DNA of 64,000 nt from Octopus vulgaris (lineage: Eukaryota): contig OX597830.1 in NCBI GenBank assembly GCA_951406725.2, positions 22,816,001-22,880,000 on the forward strand. The letters are read 5' to 3'. The notes under the pieces were generated by a model, which did not search any database, was not told where the DNA came from, and saw only the letters and a program-made list of their open reading frames with translations. A program made the translations under genes and the position numbers. Of this stretch, positions 11,739-56,799 are shown one piece after another; within the stretch, counting starts at the first letter, position 1; each line of letters begins with the position of its first letter.

Positions 11739-12520
11739 TAAACATGTGATATTAATATTATATCATTCCGTCACTAAAAAAAATGTAATTATAGGTTTTT
11801 TTATTATCTTTACTAGTATAATTGTATTGTTGTTTATCTAAATTATGTAATTTCACAATAATCTGTATGTGTAAATCTTAGTTTAATAGCATCTCTTAAT
11901 GACTGGTAAAGCAGCTGTGACGAGTCCCAGCGACAGCCAAAATTAAGTCTATAAGCAGAGAAATCTAAATATGCAGGGAAACAGGTTTGGCATCGCACCA
12001 TGACAAGAAACTGACCACGCGCTAATGATTTCCTTTGAAGTAGAACGCTAGCAGATGCAGGAAATTAGTAATTATATATTTATGACATTATAATCCGAAG
12101 TTGTTCATCTATCTTCATAAAAGACGAAACAAATCTGTGCTTAAGAATGGAGTGAAAAGGGGTTTGTTTATTTTATATTTTCGTTTTATTTATTTTTTTT
12201 CATTAATTGTTCTTTTTTGGGGGGATATTTTTTCTCATTTGCAATTCTTTGTTTTTTCGTGTTGCGCTTTGTCAACGGAATGCTAAAAATAGAATAAGGA
12301 CATAAAACGAAGGGAAACAAAAGTTGATCCAGCAGTCCTCTCGAATCTACTCACATGAAGACGTGCAAGCATATAGCTATTGTTGGATCGTATTAATGCA
12401 ATAATATGCATAATATATGCAGCATTCATACGTAGAAACAATTGTAGAAATTTGGAATAAAATGTGTTCCTTCCATTTTCCTGTATTAGAATTCTCGACT
12501 TATAAATTAGATAATTAGGA

Positions 12521-13722
<1,202 letters not shown>

Positions 13723-13829: not shown

Positions 13830-15085
13830 TCACATTCTAAACCTGAGAAAAGTCTTGCATAGTTTTACTGTTCCACTTACAAATTGTATTTGTAATGTGC
13901 GAATCAGTTGGTTGACTTCTTTTTCTGAAAATTCAAGCTTATCCAGACTGACAGTTAGGCATTTACTTACAATACCAAACGCTCCTACTATTATTGCTAC
14001 AAATGTAAATTTGTAGCCCGGATATAGAAGCTGGAGGTTTTGAAGCAGTTGTCCATAGTTATCTTCTTTCTCTTTGATTTTCAACGAGATATTCACATCA
14101 GCAGGACAGCTGTCCTCCATCACGGCACATACTTTTCTCATGTCCGTCCCAAACAACAATATCCAGCCTGTTATGCTTACACTTGACAGATGTTTTGATG
14201 GGAATATTCCATCTGCATTCCTTGTGTTGATATTTGTGTACGGATTCAATAACAGGGATATTCTCTATATTTATTCTAGGACAGTCTTTTATTCCGAAGT
14301 GCATTGTATATTGTTTTTGTGACAACGTCATGTCGCATAGGGAGGCGGCGAGATGGCAGAATCGTTAGTACGCCGGGCGAAATGCTGAGCGGTATTTCGT
14401 CTGCCGTTACGTTCTGAGTTCAAATTCCGCCGAGGTCGACTTTGCCTTTCATCCTTTGGGGGTCGATTAAATAAGTACCAGTTACGCACTGGGGTCGATA
14501 TAATCGACTTAATCCGTTTGTCTGTCCTTGTTTGTCCTCTCTGTGTTTAGCCCCCTGTGGGTAGTAAAGAAATAGGTATTTCGTCTGCCGTTACGTTCTG
14601 AGTTCAAATTCCGCCGAGGTCGACTTTGCCTTTCATCCTTTGGGGGTCAATAAATTAAGTATCAGTTACGTACTGGGGTCGATGTATTCGACTTAACCCC
14701 TTTTGTCTGTCCTTGTTTGTCCCCTCTACGTTTAGCCCCTTGTGGGCAATAAAGAAATAAGGGAGGTGGTACCTTGATGACATTTTTGGGCAGCTGCTAA
14801 TCACATGTGTGATGTCTTGCACATAAATATGACATAAACTACATTTACAGTTGCATCTTGGAACTTCAAGGGCTTCACTGTCTCTTTCGTTGATAAGGTA
14901 TTTAGTAGCAATATCCTGTTCTTGAATTGCAAATGCATAGCTTTCGAAGCGTGATGTAGCGGTCACGAATCCAAGAGAGACTTCGCTTCATGCCAGTGTT
15001 ACTATCGTCTTCTAGACCATGCATACCACGTATGGTCTTTTTTGATATGCTAATCGTTTCTCTTCCAGGTCTTCATTGAGATAGG
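13830..15085 (-). mobile_element. 3' fragment of an RLE-type non-LTR retrotransposon (R4/Dong/NeSL-like), interrupted by a SINE
   Basis: FAIQEQ..T..., CCHC knuckle (CSLC...HVISSC), RHD, HNRLDIVVWD...EDSCPADVN...KEKEDNY..L...IIVGAFG. Confidence 0.85.
14344..14759 (+). mobile_element. SINE-B dimer inserted into the RLE LINE
   Basis: GGCGGCGAG.TGGCAGAATCG head with two body units, flanked by an AGGGAG(G) duplication. Confidence 0.9.
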
Positions 15086-20377: not shown

Positions 20378-20450
20378 GTCTCTGTGGTACAATCGGTTAG
20401 CACGTTCGGCTGTTAACCTAAAATTGGTGGTTCAAGCCTGACCAGGGATG
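20378..20450 (+). pseudogene. tRNA-Asn(GTT) pseudogene
   Basis: GTCTCTGTGGTACAATCGGTTAGCACGTTCGGCTGTTAACCTAAAATTGGTGGTTCAAGCCTGACCAGGGATG is colinear with the conserved metazoan tRNA-Asn. It shows CpG-type decay and broken T-stem and anticodon-stem pairs. Confidence 0.85.
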
Positions 20451-21489: not shown

Positions 21490-21590
<101 letters not shown>

Positions 21591-21665
21591 GAGGGAGACA
21601 GACGAAAACAGCAATAGCTTACCTGTCAGCGATATATATTCATGAAATACTAGCGAGATCCGTGA

Positions 21666-22153
21666 AATGCAACTCTCAAATCGAGGCTTTTAAAAATAGA
21701 ATTCAGCTGCAAATCGCATGATTTCATAATTAGTGCAGAAATGCACTTTTCAATCTTCAGTGCAAGCATAATTCAAGATTTATAACGAATGAACAAAAGG
21801 TTTTTCACGTTAACTACTTGATAAATTGTTATAAAGATTTTATCCTATTTCAAAATTGTAAATTTAACCGGAGTATATTCAGTGCTGAATTTTAATTCCG
21901 AATAAACACGTTGTACCGAGATGCAAATAGAAAAAGCCCGCCTTTTTCATAGATGTATAATGGTTGAAACAATTCTATATACTACGCTGGGTACATTGGA
22001 TGTTCGATTGGTATGTTGATTTTTGTTCATTCGTTATAAATCTTGAATTATGCCTGCACCGAAAATTAAAAAGTGCGTTTCTGCACTAATTATGAAATCA
22101 TGTGATTTGCAGCTGAATTCTGTTTTTAAAATGCTCGCTTTGAGAGTTGCATT
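21666..22153. repeat. ~133-bp inverted repeat (21666-21798 / 22021-22153); also a ~60-bp direct repeat (21798-21860 / 22296-22358)
   Basis: The arms are reverse complements with few mismatches. Confidence 0.9.
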
Positions 22154-22374
22154 CCATCGCATTCGGTACCATGTGTTTATTTATTTTGGTAGTTTTGATT
22201 TTAAGAGTCCCTCCTAGCGTGTGGCATTTATATATAGTAATGCCATGTATGAATAAATATATTTAAGAGAAAAATTGATGGATTTTTCTCTTATGAGGTT
22301 TTTCATGCTAACTACTTGATAAATTCTTATAAATATTTTATCCTATTTTTAAATTGTATATATATATACATATA

Positions 22375-28140: not shown

Positions 28141-28500
28141 AAAATATCGTCTGGTGACCGAAAAACTCCGATCGCGAATATAAGCAGCCAAAACGGGGTT
28201 TCCGTCGAATGGTAGCTGGAGTAGCGTCACCCAAGCAGGGTGCGTATCTCGTCGCTCCAGGTCGAGCCACAATTTCTGCACAATTGAGAGGACGCAGCTC
28301 TTGGCTCTTGATTTTTCGTACATGTGGTTAAAATGGCCGTGAAAAGATTCACAAGATAGATTGGTCGGGCAAAATTAAGCGGTAGGAAACCAAGAAGAAG
28401 ATCACCACCAGATGGTGGGATGATATCCATAGCATCGGTTGGTCTCTTTGCAGATGGCTTCTTCCGATGTAACACTTCGGAGGACTCTGCAGCATCGACT
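28140..28500 (-). mobile_element. Degenerate non-LTR reverse transcriptase fragment
   Basis: DIIPPSGG...FARPIYLV (RPISL-like) is followed by LWLDLERRDTH...L...G...AYIRDRSFSV (DlskAFD..H...yL.dR.f.V-like). Confidence 0.45.
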
Positions 28501-28549
28501 CTCAGTTGGTGATGAATATACGATAGCTCATTAGCTCCTACACGCATTT

Positions 28550-28719
28550 TTTTCTCTCCTTGTTTCTCTCCTTGTTTTTTTTCTGTGTATCTTTCTGTCG
28601 AAGAGCGTAGGCTCGAAACATAAAAGACTTTTTCTATTTCTATTCCCGAGCGCTTTACTAATACATTTGTTTGTACTCCACCTGCCTTCGTCTTTTGTTT
28701 ATTTTCGTAAATCTTTCCG

Positions 28720-28786
<67 letters not shown>

Positions 28787-28965
28787 GGGAGAGTATATAC
28801 ATATATATACATATAGGGAGAGTTTACGAAAAAAATAAAAGACGAAAACAGGTGGTGTACACGACAAACAGATGTATTAGTATAACGCTCAGGAATAGAA
28901 AAAGTCTTTTACTTTTCGAGCCTACGCTCTTCTACGGAAAGGGACACAGAAAAATCAAGGAGAGA
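28550..28965. mobile_element. Two Penelope-type terminal remnants facing each other across (TA)n, each with a minimal HHR-like motif (28590-28627 +, 28905-28943 -)
   Basis: TCTTT-CTGTCGA-AGAGC-GTAG-GCTC-GAAAC-ATA-AAAGA and its diverged reverse-complement copy. Confidence 0.65.
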
Positions 28966-29049
28966 AAAAAAGGAGAGAAAAAAGGAGAGAGAAAAAAGGA
29001 GAAAGACAAGGAGAGAAAAAAAGGAGAGAAAATGTATAAATTTAAATAT

Positions 29050-29340
29050 ATATATAAATTAGGAAAGAACCACCTTTTATCAATTCAACAATGAAATAAC
29101 AATGATATAATTAAATTATATCTTATAGAAAAAGCTAAAAAATATATAATTGGTAAAAGGACTACACGTGTGGTACTTTTATCAATTATATACTTTTTAT
29201 TTATTATTTTATATTTTACTTAATTATTGGTATATGTTTTTATTGTATATCTAATTTTTTTCTATATGGTATAATTTAATTATATCATTGTTATTTCATT
29301 GTTGAATTGATAAAAGGTGGTTCTTTTCTAAATTATATAC
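29050..29340. repeat. AT-rich inverted repeat with ~85-bp arms
   Basis: AAAGAACCACCTTTTATCAATTCAACAATGAAATAACAATGATATAATTAAATTATA pairs with its reverse complement at about 29270-29330. Confidence 0.85.
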
Positions 29341-29416
29341 ATATACTATATAATGTGAAATTTGATTTAGTATTACTAAATTGAATTTTTCCCTGTAAGT
29401 TTGGAATAATATTCCC

Positions 29417-30400: not shown

Positions 30401-30464
<64 letters not shown>

Positions 30465-30650
30465 ACCGTTGGCGATTTTTTTCCTCTGTCTTCCCTTCTC
30501 TGGATCTTTCCTTCTCCTATGTTTCCGACGAAGAGCTCCGCTCGAAACGTTATGGCCTCCTTCTTTCCTTCTTTCCTGAGCGTCCAATAATACTATATTT
30601 GTTCCACGTCCTCGCGTTGTTGTGTTTTTTTGTGCTTTCTTGTTTGGATT
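30465..30650 (+). mobile_element. Penelope-type terminal remnant with a minimal HHR-like motif (30521-30555), following the microsatellite of a SINE-A 5' half
   Basis: CCGACGA-AGAGC-TCC-GCTC-GAAAC-GTT, flanked by (TA)n. Confidence 0.55.
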
Positions 30651-30651
30651 A

Positions 30652-31250
<599 letters not shown>

Positions 31251-35757: not shown

Positions 35758-35824
<67 letters not shown>

Positions 35825-35950
35825 GGTCCCGGGTTGATTCGGGGTTAACCACAGTAAATAAGGTACTCAATACATAGCAGAGTAAAATTAATTTATTATA
35901 TAGAAGGAGCTTCTACAGGACTAGAACTGTTTCATTCAAGAGAAATCATC

Positions 35951-36007
35951 AGGAGCTTCCTGATGATTTCTCTTGCATGAAACAGTTCTAGTCCTGTAGA
36001 AGCTCCT
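35951..36007 (+). ncRNA. Type I hammerhead ribozyme candidate within a ~125-bp palindrome
   Basis: AGGAGCTTC-CTGATGA-TTTCTCTTGCAT-GAAACAG-TTCTAGTC-CT-GTA-GAAGCTCCT gives a 9-bp stem I, an intact CUGAUGA/GAAA core, a 4-bp stem III and a GUA cleavage triplet. Stem II is weak. Confidence 0.7.
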
Positions 36008-36009
36008 TC

Positions 36010-36093
<84 letters not shown>

Positions 36094-39618: not shown

Positions 39619-40485
39619 TCTGGTGAGAGATAAATATTATAACTGAGGAAGATTTTTCGTAAGAGATGAAATGTCCATTTTTATCTATTGCGCAATTATC
39701 TTAACCGCACGTATTAAATGCATTCAAAATGTCTTTACTGGTTTAACTTCAATTTTATACGATATATGACTCAATAACCCCTGCAAGCTAACAGTCCCAA
39801 ATCCATTCACAGGGTTACGATAATAAAAATTTGGAGTCGTTTGTTCTATTCGATTAGTGTTGGAAATTCTGGCGACAGGTATCGCTTCTATACCCGTTCA
39901 CAGGCCTCTGTTGATACTTAGTGTTAATACTTGATAAGTATTCAAATTAATAACTCCAATTCTTTGTAGCAACTGGAATTGTTGAGTATATAAACAGATT
40001 GGTTGCTTGTCTCTATGGAATTGGTCAAATGATGTGGACACCTCTGACGAGAATCCGATGGGGTTCGGAAATCGATTAAAGGGTTTTTCATCGTTTATTC
40101 GCCTAAAGTATATCATATACTGTATTTATTTATGTGTGTGTGTGTGTGTGTGTGTGGCTGTGTGGTAAGTAGCTTGCTTACCAACCACTGCGTGGCACCT
40201 TGGGCAAGTGTCTTCAACTATAGCCTCGGGCCGACCAAAGTGAATTTGGTAGACGGAAACTGAAAGAAGCCCGTCGTATATATGTGTATATATATATATA
40301 TATATATTATATACATATATATATATATATATATATACGGTTTAAGTAATTGAGATTCAAGTGAATTTTAATGAATTCACATGAATATGGTCCTTAACTA
40401 GGATGCACCGGAAATCTATATGGTGTTAACCATACAACAAGTGGGGTGATTCAAATAGGAAAAAAGCAACAAGAATGGATTAAAA

Positions 40486-40573
40486 TCTCGGTACAATTGT
40501 TTCGTACGAGGACATCTTTAATAAGCTACAAAAAATGCAGTAAATACAGATGGCTCGTACTCGTCAGCCGAAA
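40486..40573 (-). ncRNA. Type I hammerhead ribozyme candidate (left-arm copy)
   Basis: Reverse complement of 40882-40969. Confidence 0.8.
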
Positions 40574-40881
40574 AAACATCAGAGAATTCCCAAACATCAA
40601 AAGGGGTAGATACAAAAGAGGGTGTAAGATTAACTGCATTGAAGAAAGTTCGATTCCTGGAGATCCGATGAAAGGTCTTAAACTTACAAAAGAGGGTGTA
40701 AGATTAACTGCATTGAAGAAAGTTCGATTCCTGGAGATCCGATGAAAGGTCCTAAACTTACAAATTCTGTAAGTTTAAGACCTTTCATCGGATCTCCAGG
40801 AATCGAACTTTCTTCAATGCAGTTAATCTTACACCCTCTTTGTATCTACCTCTTTTGATGTTTGGGAATTCTCTGATGTTT

Positions 40882-40969
40882 TTTCGGCTGACGAGTACGA
40901 GCCATCTGTATTTACTGCATTTTTTGTAGCTTATTAAAGATGTCCTCGTACGAAACAATTGTACCGAGA
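40882..40969 (+). ncRNA. Type I hammerhead ribozyme candidate (Penelope-type, palindromic stem III)
   Basis: TTTCGG-CTGACGA-GTACGAG[...]CTCGTAC-GAAAC-AATT-GTA-CCGAGA. All core nucleotides are intact, stem II has 7 bp with G10.1-C11.1, ACAATTGT is palindromic, and the cleavage site is GUA. Confidence 0.8.
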
Positions 40970-40995
40970 TTTTAAGCCATTCTTGTTGCTTTTTT

Positions 40996-41037
<42 letters not shown>

Positions 41038-50474: not shown

Positions 50475-50495
50475 ATATATATATATATATATATA

Positions 50496-50850
50496 TTGGG
50501 TCGTACCATAAATAAGGTGGTTGTTTTTATACTTCTCTTATTTTTCAAAATGAAGATAAACAAAGTTCTTTTTTAATCTAAAATATTCCCTCCTTCATTT
50601 TCTGCAATACTCTTCTATCTATCTGGTAGACTTGCAAGGCCCCTCTTTCAAACTTCACTTGTCCGTGACGAAAAATATTCCTCCAGTACTGTTCTGACCC
50701 CGTCTACAGAATTCATATTTTTTCCGTCCTAATGATTTTCGATTCTGCGGAATAAATGATAATCAGATGGGGCAATGTCCGGCGAATATGGTGGGTAGGG
50801 CATCGTTTCTCATTCAAATGGCTCCAGCCTTTTGAATGATGTCAACCTCG
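50496..50850 (-). mobile_element. 3' portion of the mariner family (as 52251-53175)
   Basis: TIR TTGGGTCGTACCATAAATAA. The minus strand gives ETMPYPPYSPDIAPSDYHLFR...GLASLPDR*KSIAENEGG. Confidence 0.85.
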
Positions 50851-51253
50851 CTGTATTGGTGTCTAGTTTGAGACCTCAATGTTGCTATTTAGTTTGGGAG
50901 GTTCTGTGGCCTTTATATACACTGGAAGTAGAATGGGGCGATTGTTGTTATCGCTAGGCCTAACTCATCGTAAGCAAATACCATCATGAGTGATATCCAG
51001 ACTACAGTGGACAAGGAAAGCTACTGAATTTGGTTAAAAAGATGACGATGAGAAATGGCAGGAAGAATATTGAGTGAAACCCCAAAACCTATTGATCTAG
51101 CAAGCGGGTCTTCATCTCAGTGAGAGCGGCCGGTGCGCAATAATCCTTTCTACTATAGGTACAAGGCCTGAAATTTGGGGGAGGGGGAAGAACTAGTCGA
51201 TTACATCGACCTCAGTGTTTCACTGGTACTAAATTTATCGATTACAGACACAG

Positions 51254-51378
<125 letters not shown>

Positions 51379-51534
51379 CGACGGGCTTCTTTCAGTTTCC
51401 GTCTACCAAATTCACTTTGGTCGGCCCGAGGTCGGCCCGAGGCTATAGTAGAAGACACATGACCAAGGTGTCACACAGTGGGACTGAACCCGGAACCGTG
51501 AGGCTGTAAGCAAGCTACTTACCACACAGCCACT

Positions 51535-51587
<53 letters not shown>

Positions 51588-51600
51588 ATGTACGTACACG

Positions 51601-51641
<41 letters not shown>

Positions 51642-52250
51642 GTCTTGTTTTTCTCATTTTATGTTATTTTCTGTTTGGAGAACTTTGCTGAATCACGATA
51701 CAAAAGTAACGGTTTGAACCATACTTATACCGCTGTTGCAAACTTATATAATTATCGTAAACACGACACTCCTTCCACTTAAAAAAGGTTAAGAGTTGTT
51801 CTCGTGTTTTTTTTTTTCAGTTTACCCTGAGAAAAGCAAGCTTTGTTGAATACAAAGTTTCCATTGCTATCTTGGAAATATTTCACTGTTCGAGCGTGTG
51901 TGATAAAGATCTACTTGGTCCTCAACACCATCGTCATCATCGAGCTGCCAAGCCTCGGTCGGCTTTGATCGAATAGACCACTGATCAAAAACGTTTCACC
52001 TATAACCATCCTTTTTTTCTTTCTGATTCAGTCACTGGACTGCGGCGATGCTGGGGCACCGCCTTCAGAGGTTTTTAGTCAAACAAATCGACCACGTTAC
52101 GTTTCATTTTTTTGTATTTCTTTTAAAGTTTGGTACTTATCCTATCGGTCTTTTTTGTTAAACTGCTAGGTTACGAGGATGTATACAAAGCAGCACCGGT
52201 TGTCAAGTGGCGTGGTTGGGGAAACAAACACACACACACACACACATATA

Positions 52251-53175
52251 TTAGGTCATCTCATAAATAATGCTGTGTTTTCACTTGCATGAACTAAAAG
52301 TTGGAAGGGGACAGGATAAACTACCTGCATCAACTTGCTATAAAAGTAGGTCGTAATTTTACCTTGTCCTTATTCTTAGTGCAAGCTTTGAAGAGTGCAG
52401 TTCGATTTTAACAGTTACTTTTCTTCAAAGCTATAATGGAAGTGACAAATAAGTATATTCTGTATATTTTGCTTTATGAGTTAAATTAAGGCAACAATGC
52501 AACGGAAAGTGCGAGGAATATTAATGCAGTACTTGGGGATCAGATAATAAGAGTAAACCAGTGTCAACGGTAGTTCCAGAAATTCCAAAACCGGAAACTA
52601 CAGCCTTGAAGACGAGCCTCATCCTAGAAGATCTGTAGAGCTCTACTAGGACGTCCTGCAAACCCCGGTGGAACAAAATCCCATTGTAACTGTTGAGGGA
52701 CTAGTAGAGAAGCCTGGTTTTGGTCATTCAATCATTCATCGACACCTGCGCTAGAAGAAAAGCGACCGTCTTTGGTTTCAAGAGGAAAGGTGTTCTTCCA
52801 TCAGGATAATGCTCGGTCACACAGCGAAGATGATATTCCAGAAGCTGGAGCCATTTGAATGGGAAACGATGCCCCACCCATCATATTCGTTGGATATTGC
52901 CCCATCTGATTATCATTTATTCCGCAATCTTCAAAATCATTAGGATGGAAAAAAATATGAATTCAGTAGACGAGGTCGGAGCAGTAGTGGAGAAGTATTT
53001 TTCGACATGGACAAGTGAATTTTGGAAGAGAGGCCTTGCAAGTCTACCAGATAGATGGAAGAGCATTGTAGAAAATGAAGGAGAGTATATTTTAGATTAA
53101 AAGAAACTTTGGTTATCTTTACTTTGAAAATTAAAAGAAGTATAAAAAGACTGCATTATTTATGGAATGACCCAA
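52251..53175 (+). mobile_element. Internally deleted mariner (DD34D family) with both TIRs and a TA TSD
   Basis: TA|TTAGGTCATC.CATAAATAATGC ... GCATTATTTATGGAATGACCCAA|TA. The HTH region (MEVT...LEDEP) is joined to FHQDNARSH...HPSYSLDIAPSDYHLFR...RWKSIVENEGEYILD. Confidence 0.92.
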
Positions 53176-53400
53176 TACATGTCTGAGCAACTGATATTCT
53201 TTGACAACGATGTGATGTGACCCGCCATGGCCAATAGCAGTCTATCTTCCAGTAGCCATCTTGGACTTCCAGTATCTCTCCATTCTGTAAACTGAAGCCT
53301 GAAAGAAACGGGCTTCTATTAGATGCCTGCGAAACTTTAAGCCACAAGAAGCCGAAATAAACTGTTTTAAATAATGTGTGTGTGTCTGTGTGTCTGTGTA

Positions 53401-54672: not shown

Positions 54673-55518
54673 TATAATATATAGATACAGTGGTGGGCAA
54701 AAATAGGTATGCAGTTGCTTAATATGAGTGGAATGTTCTTCACCTTTCTCTGTTTCATTTTTGGGGGTGGGGGTGGGGGATAAGAACTCTATGATTCTAT
54801 GTTCTTTTAAACTAAATTCTTGTATAATAAGCAAAAAAAGCTAGTTCTAAAATCTCTCTATGAGATGAACGCAGTAACTGTACTAGCAAGTAATGTTCTT
54901 AACCACTTCAATATGGCTGTTCTGTTGGAACGTATTTTACTGCGATTTCTTAAACCCAATAGGACATCTCTAACTGGTTAACGACGCACAGCTGCATCCG
55001 ATATACAGCGAGCAGGGGAGCAAACTCTTACCATCTTCTAGCGACGGGATCAGCAGACCAGCCTGGTTTCGAGCTATTTCTGTCTCTCTTCGGTACTGGA
55101 CACCTCGTCTGGTAGAAATGGAAGTAGCCCGCTTCTGCTCAAATTCAAGCAACACACTGTCGCTGATCTTGCAACAAACGAAAAGGCTAGTACTAAAAAC
55201 TCTCTAAGAGATGAACGCATTATTGACATATTATAATCATGCTATTTAGCTCTCTTTAATTTTAGCCCTCTGCAGGAGCTAGCTTAAAAGACTGCACAGA
55301 GCGCGGCTTTGAAGCTAGTTCTATAATAAAAGAATTATTCTTTATTTCAATTATTTGTCAATGTGGCTGGAAATTTGACCAACGATGAACGAAAGCAACA
55401 GGATGTCTACTTTCCCCCACCACTATGTACAATGATTTCTCAATAAACACGGGACTATCTATGTATGTCTGCATGTATGGACGTATGTATGTATTTATAT
55501 ATATGTATATGTATATAA

Positions 55519-55582
<64 letters not shown>

Positions 55583-56799
55583 CAATTATAGATAAAGGCA
55601 AAAGTAAAAGTTTTCTATGCCAATTTGCTGAAAAATAGACTTTAAATCGTCTAACCACATACAATACTATTCACTATAAATTCTTATCGTGTTCCACCCT
55701 GATGAAGGAAGAATCCTTTTGAAGATGACGGAATTTAAAGATTTTCTGTTAGCTTGCTTTCCTCGTTTCAACACGCTTCGTATGTACAGTGAACAATATT
55801 GTATGTGGTTAGACGATCTAAAGTCTATTTTTCATCATATTGGTATAGAACATTTTTTTCTTTTGCCCTTATTTATAATTGTTTATAATTTTCACCTTAA
55901 GAGGTATTTTAATATGTTGGCCACTGACGTGTTGCAGGATTTTTGGTGTGAATGAAACAGATATTTTGTATTTCGGGATTCTTTTATTTTTTATTCTTTT
56001 ACTTGTTTCAGTCATTTGACTGCGGCCATGTTGGAGCACCGCCTTTAGTCGAACAAATCGATCTCACCGGGACTTATTCTTTGTAAACCTAGTACTTATT
56101 CTATCGTTCTCTTTTGCCAAACCGCTAGGTTACGGGGGATGTAAACACACTACCATCGGTTGTCAAGCGATGGTCTGTGGCTTACGATTGGCTATAATTA
56201 TCAAAATTTGCAAACTTTAATGACTAATAACTCTTTATTTATTGATTTATAGCGAAAATTACTTTCACGTCATTAATTAGCTTATAAAAGTGTATCATTA
56301 CACTGAATATGAAATCAATTCGAACAGAAAATTGACGCTGGCAGCCGCTGGCAACCAAACAGACAAGATCCGAACCGGCTGCCATTTCTCCCTAGATATT
56401 CCGCAGTCTTACTCTAAGAGATCGTTTATTGTTTTTTTCTTTTGCTGTCTTTTGCTTCTTCTAGTTGTTTCAGTTATCAAATAGCGGCCATGCTAGGGCA
56501 TCGCTTTCATCGATCCTTATACTTAAATGTTTAAAGTTTGGTACTTATTCTATCGCGTTTTTTTTTTGCCGAACAGGTTAGCTTAAGAGAACGTAAGTAA
56601 ACCAACACCAGTTGTCAAACTACGGCTGACAGACAGACAGACACACGTCTTAAGTGCCATATTGTAGAACTGAACCTGAAACCATGTGGGTCAGATGCAA
56701 ATTTCTTACCACACAGACATGTAAAAAAATATATGAGGTCGTTTAATTTAAATTCACAACGACCACTAAAATGAATTTTAGCACGCTACTTCACCCAAC

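Follow-up and report, generated by a model that had tools for sequence, protein, structure and literature searches.

A hammerhead-bearing palindromic insert in a (TA)n tract of Octopus vulgaris: a probable Penelope-type stub and the possible origin of its junction at stem I

The window of 64,000 nucleotides of Octopus vulgaris DNA that was analysed contains, between two (TA)n tracts without assigned strand (35789-35821 and 36016-36092), an insert of 194 bases that forms a hairpin with one hammerhead motif per strand. The left tract belongs to the microsatellite that was the target. It is followed by a unique 3' extension of 75 nt, the tail (35822-35896, minus strand), which is present on one arm only and at whose end, position 35822, the first reverse transcription would have started. 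Next come the tail-bearing arm (35897-35954), with the minus strand as the sense strand and a letter at 35936 that agrees with the family described below, and the inverted tail-less arm (35958-36015, plus strand), whose TATATA end merges into the target and is the putative start of the second reverse transcription. The arms, each 58 bp long, differ by a single mismatch (35936/35976) and are separated by a 3-nt spacer (35955-35957). They meet head-to-head, with outward-pointing hammerhead cores. The strict palindrome measures 119 bp and the gapped alignment 125 bp (61+3+61), in agreement with the palindrome of about 125 bp with inverted arms inside (TA)n of the original prediction. The junction (35951-35961, no strand assigned) reads AGGA-GCT-TCCT, AGGAGCTTCCT, which is an AGCT-centred perfect palindrome minus one base. 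No target-site duplication is readable because (TA)n lies on both sides. Open reading frames of at least 100 aa are absent from the stub, and the 64-kb window holds no second copy of the element.

Chimeric reads are known to arise at perfect palindromes, a point in favour of a fold-back artefact of library preparation or assembly. Such an origin is nevertheless extremely improbable for this palindrome, given that its arms differ at one site, that its flanks differ and that its junction has sequencing depth in four of four runs. Four older palindromes of similar layout, with arms 85-99% alike, also occur in the window.

The conserved core bases and stems I and III of a type I hammerhead in the layout of the Hydra clade are present on the plus strand at 35951-36007, with a predicted cut after 35998. 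Stem I has 9 bp (35951-35959 paired with 35999-36007), i.e., six family pairs and three outer pairs. The core consists of CUGAUGA at 35960-35966 followed by U, of U-GAA with the GAA at 35979-35981, and of GUA at the cut site; stem III (ACAG/CUGU) has 4 bp and is closed by an 8-nt loop III. The middle pair of the 3-bp stem II is lost through the sole arm mismatch, at 35976. On the minus strand (35905-35961, predicted cut after 35914) the core and the 3-bp stem II are intact, and stem I consists of two pairs followed by a bulge. Since stem II is broken on the one strand and stem I bulged on the other, neither strand of this copy carries an intact hammerhead. The plus strand had been read as a complete hammerhead, which holds for the 9-bp stem I, the core, stem III and GUA but not for stem II; the minus strand had been described correctly as having the same core with a bulged stem I. 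The motif sits 83 nt from the 3' end. A motif with a stem I of at least 9 bp and a stem III of at least 4 bp was found in none of 200 Markov-resampled windows, and one with at least 6 and at least 3 bp in 4 of the 200. A hammerhead match is absent in Rfam, both at the gathering score and at E<=10, and the sub-threshold Rfam miRNA matches at the insert are a reflection of the hairpin only.

In the transcript of either strand the antisense arm precedes the hammerhead motif. The predicted fold of the full insert RNA is a hairpin of -111.7 kcal/mol, as compared with -37.4 kcal/mol when the plus-strand hammerhead is forced; read-through RNA is thus predicted to be a long hairpin rather than a ribozyme, with the motif sequestered. 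Dimer formation through the CUAG of loop III, calculated at -14.8 kcal/mol, would be possible in theory. The stem II of the family is AU-rich and contributes -0.1 kcal/mol. The computed probabilities of the isolated hammerhead fold (0.003 and 0.001) were set aside as evidence because models of this kind ignore the tertiary contacts of the core.

The element is not confined to this locus. At least half of its words are contained in 20 of the 24 listed sequencing runs (10 studies, five organism labels). In the four runs whose contigs were aligned to 35822-35964, designated X1, X10, X5 and X13 (three organism labels), 1653, 1584, 951 and 75 contigs were obtained, and from these 75 to 1653 contigs per run it follows that the 35.9-kb element is an abundant dispersed multi-copy family with variants. 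Many contigs reach (TA)n at the inner border of the 75-nt tail, and the loose (TA)n ends at 35887-35893 in all four runs constitute a second preferred end. At position 35936 no variant was listed in the contig alignments of the four runs; the break of stem II is therefore private to the 35.9-kb copy. The U·U next to stem II likewise had no listed variant of at least 2% in the four runs, with a sensitivity that is lower near contig ends. A single core variant was found in more than one run, and it falls on position 7, the free one: X5 and X13 contain a subfamily with CUGAAGA, in which A occupies this sole free position of the hammerhead core. This subfamily is a weak hint of selection on the ribozyme of the parent element. 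Pattern scans with a 24-mer yielded no match in metagenome contigs, and scans with a 21-mer none in genome contigs and none in viral contigs. A 19-mer matched nine metagenome loci, all of which were rejected as chance since none extends past 25 nt. Neither these scans nor the four runs yielded a parent element.

The features of the family resemble those of the Hydra clade of Penelope-like elements (PLEs) as listed in the supplement of Craig 2021 (PMC8557442). Likenesses are the (TA)n target, given in 26 of the 27 Hydra rows, a type I hammerhead no more than about 100 nt from the 3' end, a short stem II flanked by U·U (3-4 bp in the table) and a 4-bp stem III, by-eye comparison with the table being the basis for the stems. 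In File S2 of that supplement we counted U·U flanking stem II, in the arrangement CUGANGA-U / U-GAA, in 14 of 25 Hydra-clade families, so that U·U is normal for a hammerhead of this type, and the fear that the pair would prove non-conserved was unfounded. In the same table, stem III is ACAG/CUGU in 4 of the 25 families, stem I measures 3-7 bp with a single exception, and Penelope-13_HM is entered with an inverted 5'-truncated copy. The family differs from the tabulated Hydra elements in loop III (8 nt as opposed to 1-3 nt) and in stem II, which is AU-rich here and mostly GC-rich there. The preference for (TA)n is not specific to Hydra but common to Naiad and Neptune. Six probe words, five from the window and one deduced, had no match in the consensuses of the PMC8557442 supplement, in whose text a line break might mask one, and the hammerhead of Hydra-1_Obim listed there differs in sequence from that of the 35.9-kb family. 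The HHR_core of Naiad was considered on account of its fitting 12-nt spacer and rejected, as the probe words are unmatched and the Hydra table fits better. The 35.9-kb family is accordingly filed as Hydra-type on the basis of its RNA motif, layout and target, and not as a proven member; "Hydra-type" is a label only because no ORF for a reverse transcriptase or a GIY-YIG endonuclease, with the DKT motif and the lack of CCHH that mark the clade, ties the family to it.

The layout of the insert is also known from PLEs. Their insertions have an inverted 5'-truncated copy beside the 5' end and a tail at one end (Craig 2021, PMC8557442), and palindromes were described at head-to-head junctions of Penelope elements (Arkhipova 2013, PMC3846280). 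The concept of the tail is found in PMC3846280 and PMC11167929; the tails given in the published accounts consulted are 30-40 bp, in contrast to 75 nt here. The pLTR insertions of the Penelope elements of Adineta vaga (PMC3846280) are similar in being inverted, in having a tail on one arm only and in their junction palindromes, for which self-priming was proposed. The A. vaga units differ in that an ORF lies between the pLTRs, the tail has 31 bp and the target duplications have 8-10 bp, whereas here only a stub with a 75-nt tail is present. In the in vitro system of Poseidon from Anolis carolinensis (PAc; Frangieh et al. 2024, PMC11167929), both strands of the target are cut and extended, and two starts of reverse transcription bound the tail. 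PAc shares with the present family an AT-rich target and a hammerhead close to the 3' end; that of PAc is dispensable for insertion in vitro. PAc belongs to another clade, and the sections of PMC11167929 consulted contain no analysis of inverted products. Cervera and de la Pena 2014 (PMC4209133) reported motif pairs on opposite strands, 100-700 bp apart, among metazoan PLE hammerheads, and their min-HHRs resemble the present motif in that a type I core occurs in short repeats from PLE ends. Assignment to the min-HHRs was rejected: they need G10.1-C11.1 and a long helix II, together with a helix III that is minimal or missing (PMC4209133), as opposed to U·U and a 4-bp helix III here. Likewise rejected was a non-LTR retrozyme (bioRxiv 10.64898/2026.07.22.740005), whose units according to the portion consulted are direct tandem repeats that each carry a hammerhead, while the copies here are inverted.

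Other palindromes of the window allow a comparison of the sites at which such elements turn. An element of an unrelated family at 40338-41000 (no strand assigned) consists of a tail (40338-40454), arms at 40455-40688 (extended to 40762 by a 74-bp tandem duplication) and 40768-41000, a turn at 40763-40767, and hammerheads at 40486-40573 (minus strand) and 40882-40969 (plus strand). As had been stated from the outset, it has the same layout of tail, inverted arms and (TA)n as the 35.9-kb insert, to which blastn revealed no sequence similarity. Its centre is an AATT-centred perfect palindrome minus one base, and the AGCT and AATT centres have both lost one base on the tail-bearing side, in two young elements and hence in two cases only. 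The tandem duplication in the tail-bearing arm immediately precedes the turn, and a short word is shared at the jump (40611-40767). The hammerheads of the 40.5-kb element are well formed: stem II has 7 bp, loop II is long and structured, stem III is palindromic and the fold z-score is -3.7. Judged from their sequence, they would suit a cleavage assay better than the 35.9-kb motif does. A third element with a tail and inverted arms adjoins (TA)n at 21588-22168. Its arms (21651-21798 and 22021-22168) are alike in 134 of 147 positions, enclose a 222-nt spacer and end 33 nt upstream of stem I of a U·U-type hammerhead at 21707-21765 (minus strand). Two older palindromes, located in or beside TA-rich flanks at 29046-29344 and 55577-55887, have arms of 88 and 117 bp and spacers of 123 and 76 nt, respectively; no hammerhead match was found in them in our scans. 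Only one of the three hammerhead-bearing palindromes of the window, that at 35.9 kb, turns at stem I. With only 83 nt between the motif and the 3' end, any short stub would be expected to turn "near" the ribozyme. The original prediction had deduced from the two young elements an inversion mechanism at or near the ribozyme shared by two families. This small sample does not support it, as the turn of the 40.5-kb element is 114 nt upstream of the stem I of that element and the common layout is the published default of PLEs.

The recurrence of the turn within the 35.9-kb family was studied in the contigs of the four runs. The contigs are short, the loose ends are those among the matches listed, and the query ends at the junction, which renders turns farther upstream invisible; the alignment of the four runs to 35822-35964 listed no joints. 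Loose ends at 35954 were found in 24 (X1), 72 (X10), 6 (X5) and 9 (X13) contigs, and all four consensuses start with AGCT. Six of the nine stem I pairs are therefore family sequence, and the junction contributes at most three. The idea that the fold-back junction itself supplies stem I has thus to be abandoned for these six pairs, and a stem I of 3-7 bp is usual in the Hydra clade. Beyond AGCT, X1 and X10 continue with AGCTAGCT, X5 reads directly back into the core and X13 is mixed, all according to a column consensus at 35954 with a low agreement of 0.59-0.70. Reading back into the core was observed at 35954 (6 contigs) and 35963 (4) in X5, and at 35954 (9) and 35947 (2) in X13. There are at least three forms of the centre within about 12 nt: the form of the 35.9-kb insert, the perfect AGCT palindrome, in 6 contigs of X5, and a centre that turns within the core, in 2 contigs of X13. 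The 35.9-kb form has a depth of 1212, 533, 720 and 5 at 35962-35964 in the four runs, figures in which gapped near-matches may be included, and one X13 record spans it ungapped with three other letters. Within the family the turn recurs, in several forms, no more than about 12 nt from the self-complementary AGCT of stem I, which suggests the clustering of breakpoints at stem I that had been envisaged. At the other self-complementary words of the arm, at 35924 and 35911, no junction was seen among the matches listed. The three outer pairs of stem I probably derive from the mirrored arm in the junction form of the 35.9-kb insert, and their perfect pairing could be due to chance (by our estimate about 1 in 20 to 1 in 64) or could mean that these pairs are native.

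It might be argued from these data that the inversion point in unrelated families is dictated by the ribozyme, folded or cleaving, and that the junction makes a working stem I. In favour of this view, the junction coincides with the outer edge of stem I, nine pairs are perfect on the plus strand and the junction forms recur in other runs. We regard it as very improbable. The predicted cut site is at least 41 nt away from the turn, six of the stem I pairs are family sequence and two other palindromes of the window turn elsewhere. Moreover, stem II is broken on the plus strand, and the predicted fold traps the motif in the hairpin. Insertion by PAc in vitro was unchanged by hammerhead mutants (PMC11167929), and Naiads make inverted copies without canonical hammerheads, according to the sections of PMC8557442 that deal with them.

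In a more plausible model, to which we lean with some confidence, the insert is a dead 5'-truncated Hydra-type Penelope stub whose arms were twin-primed in one insertion and joined at the AGCT of stem I. The endonuclease would cut the (TA)n target, as suggested by the flanks and by the preference of the Hydra clade. One end of the target would then prime at the tail end (35822) and the other at the internal TATATA, the mirror of 36015, by analogy with PAc; the TATATA arm end lies close to 35887-35893, where the contigs of all four runs meet (TA)n. Because both cDNAs would be antisense copies of the same stretch, they could anneal only at a self-complementary word. The likely choice is AGCT, which lies in the 5' strand of stem I and is the first word of this kind to be met upstream of the core. 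Fill-in with the loss of one or a few tip bases would result in a set of slightly different centres. The hammerhead would be a passenger in this process, and up to three outer pairs of stem I a by-product of the join. We infer every step of the insertion reaction, while the anatomy, the abundance, the six family pairs and the several centre forms are observed. Annealing at a word alone leaves the missing junctions at 35924 and 35911 without explanation, and the perfect outer three pairs remain unexplained by this model if they are non-native.

A single cDNA could lead to nearly the same products as twin priming. It would fold back on a native palindrome of stem I, prime itself as far as TATATA, be joined through TA microhomology and be trimmed at the tip. 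Arkhipova 2013 (PMC3846280) proposed self-priming for such junctions. The continuation AGCTAGCT in X1 and X10 (24 and 72 contigs) fits a native 10-bp palindrome or a longer perfect centre, and the centre of the 35.9-kb insert may be read as the AGCTAGCT form minus 5 nt. Arguing against self-priming are the preferred end site of the short arm, which snap-back alone does not explain, and the finding that PAc extends both target strands in vitro (PMC11167929). We consider this pathway unlikely, though a serious alternative.

It is also conceivable that the palindrome is a non-autonomous unit that was inverted once or a few times and has since been re-inserted entire. The depth of the arm is about twice that of the tail in X10 and X5, a weak hint in this direction as summed contig depth does not equal copy number, and the 35.9-kb junction has depth in all four runs. 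Copying of one unit hardly agrees with at least three centre forms. In addition, core variants, read from consensus letters, occur on both arms together in X13 at 35947 (2 contigs) and in X10 at 35951 (4 contigs), which fits a mirror rebuilt at each insertion, and an RNA hairpin of 58 bp would presumably be a poor template. Propagation of the whole unit is improbable for these reasons.

Neither the layout nor the junction palindromes nor the hammerhead type is new to the literature. No paper was found, in the literature outside subscription journals, on inversion breakpoints at hammerhead stem I or on the 35.9-kb family. The formation of head-to-head repeats in PLEs was named an open question (PMC8557442, PMC3846280). 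As a lone locus, probably the dead remnant of a transposon of a familiar kind, the insert is of little importance; what it offers is material for tests. With its 58-bp arms and varied centres, a family as young and abundant as this one could allow twin priming, snap-back and the copying of whole units to be distinguished on the basis of a genome assembly alone. The Hydra-type U·U hammerhead is extended to a family that is unmatched in the published set of consensuses. There is a further, rather doubtful interpretation, in which the family has been reduced to a minimal hairpin retro-element with stem I as its fixed 5' boundary. Reverse transcription would turn there in most copies because the helix of the ribozyme presents the self-complementary word, and in some of the joins a stem I longer than that of the parent would be rebuilt. 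If this were true, the junction variants would represent a natural footprinting experiment on the formation of PLE inverted repeats.

The window as a whole is rich in microsatellites and SINE-like repeats. Penelope-like end pieces with min-HHR-like cores (a pattern match at 28587-28630, the others by eye) adjoin (TA)n at 28380-29030 and 30450-30655, and two of these pieces face each other over one (TA)n tract. A relaxed match to a hammerhead-like core is located at 55048-55101 (minus strand). The stretches 12515-13507, 13830-14987 and 50491-53180 contain what we take to be decayed Tc1/mariner-like transposase frames, a C-terminal fragment of a non-LTR retrotransposon and two inverted mariner-like pieces. 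A weak tRNA match of 36.1 bits at 20378-20450 is possibly a pseudogene or the head of a SINE.
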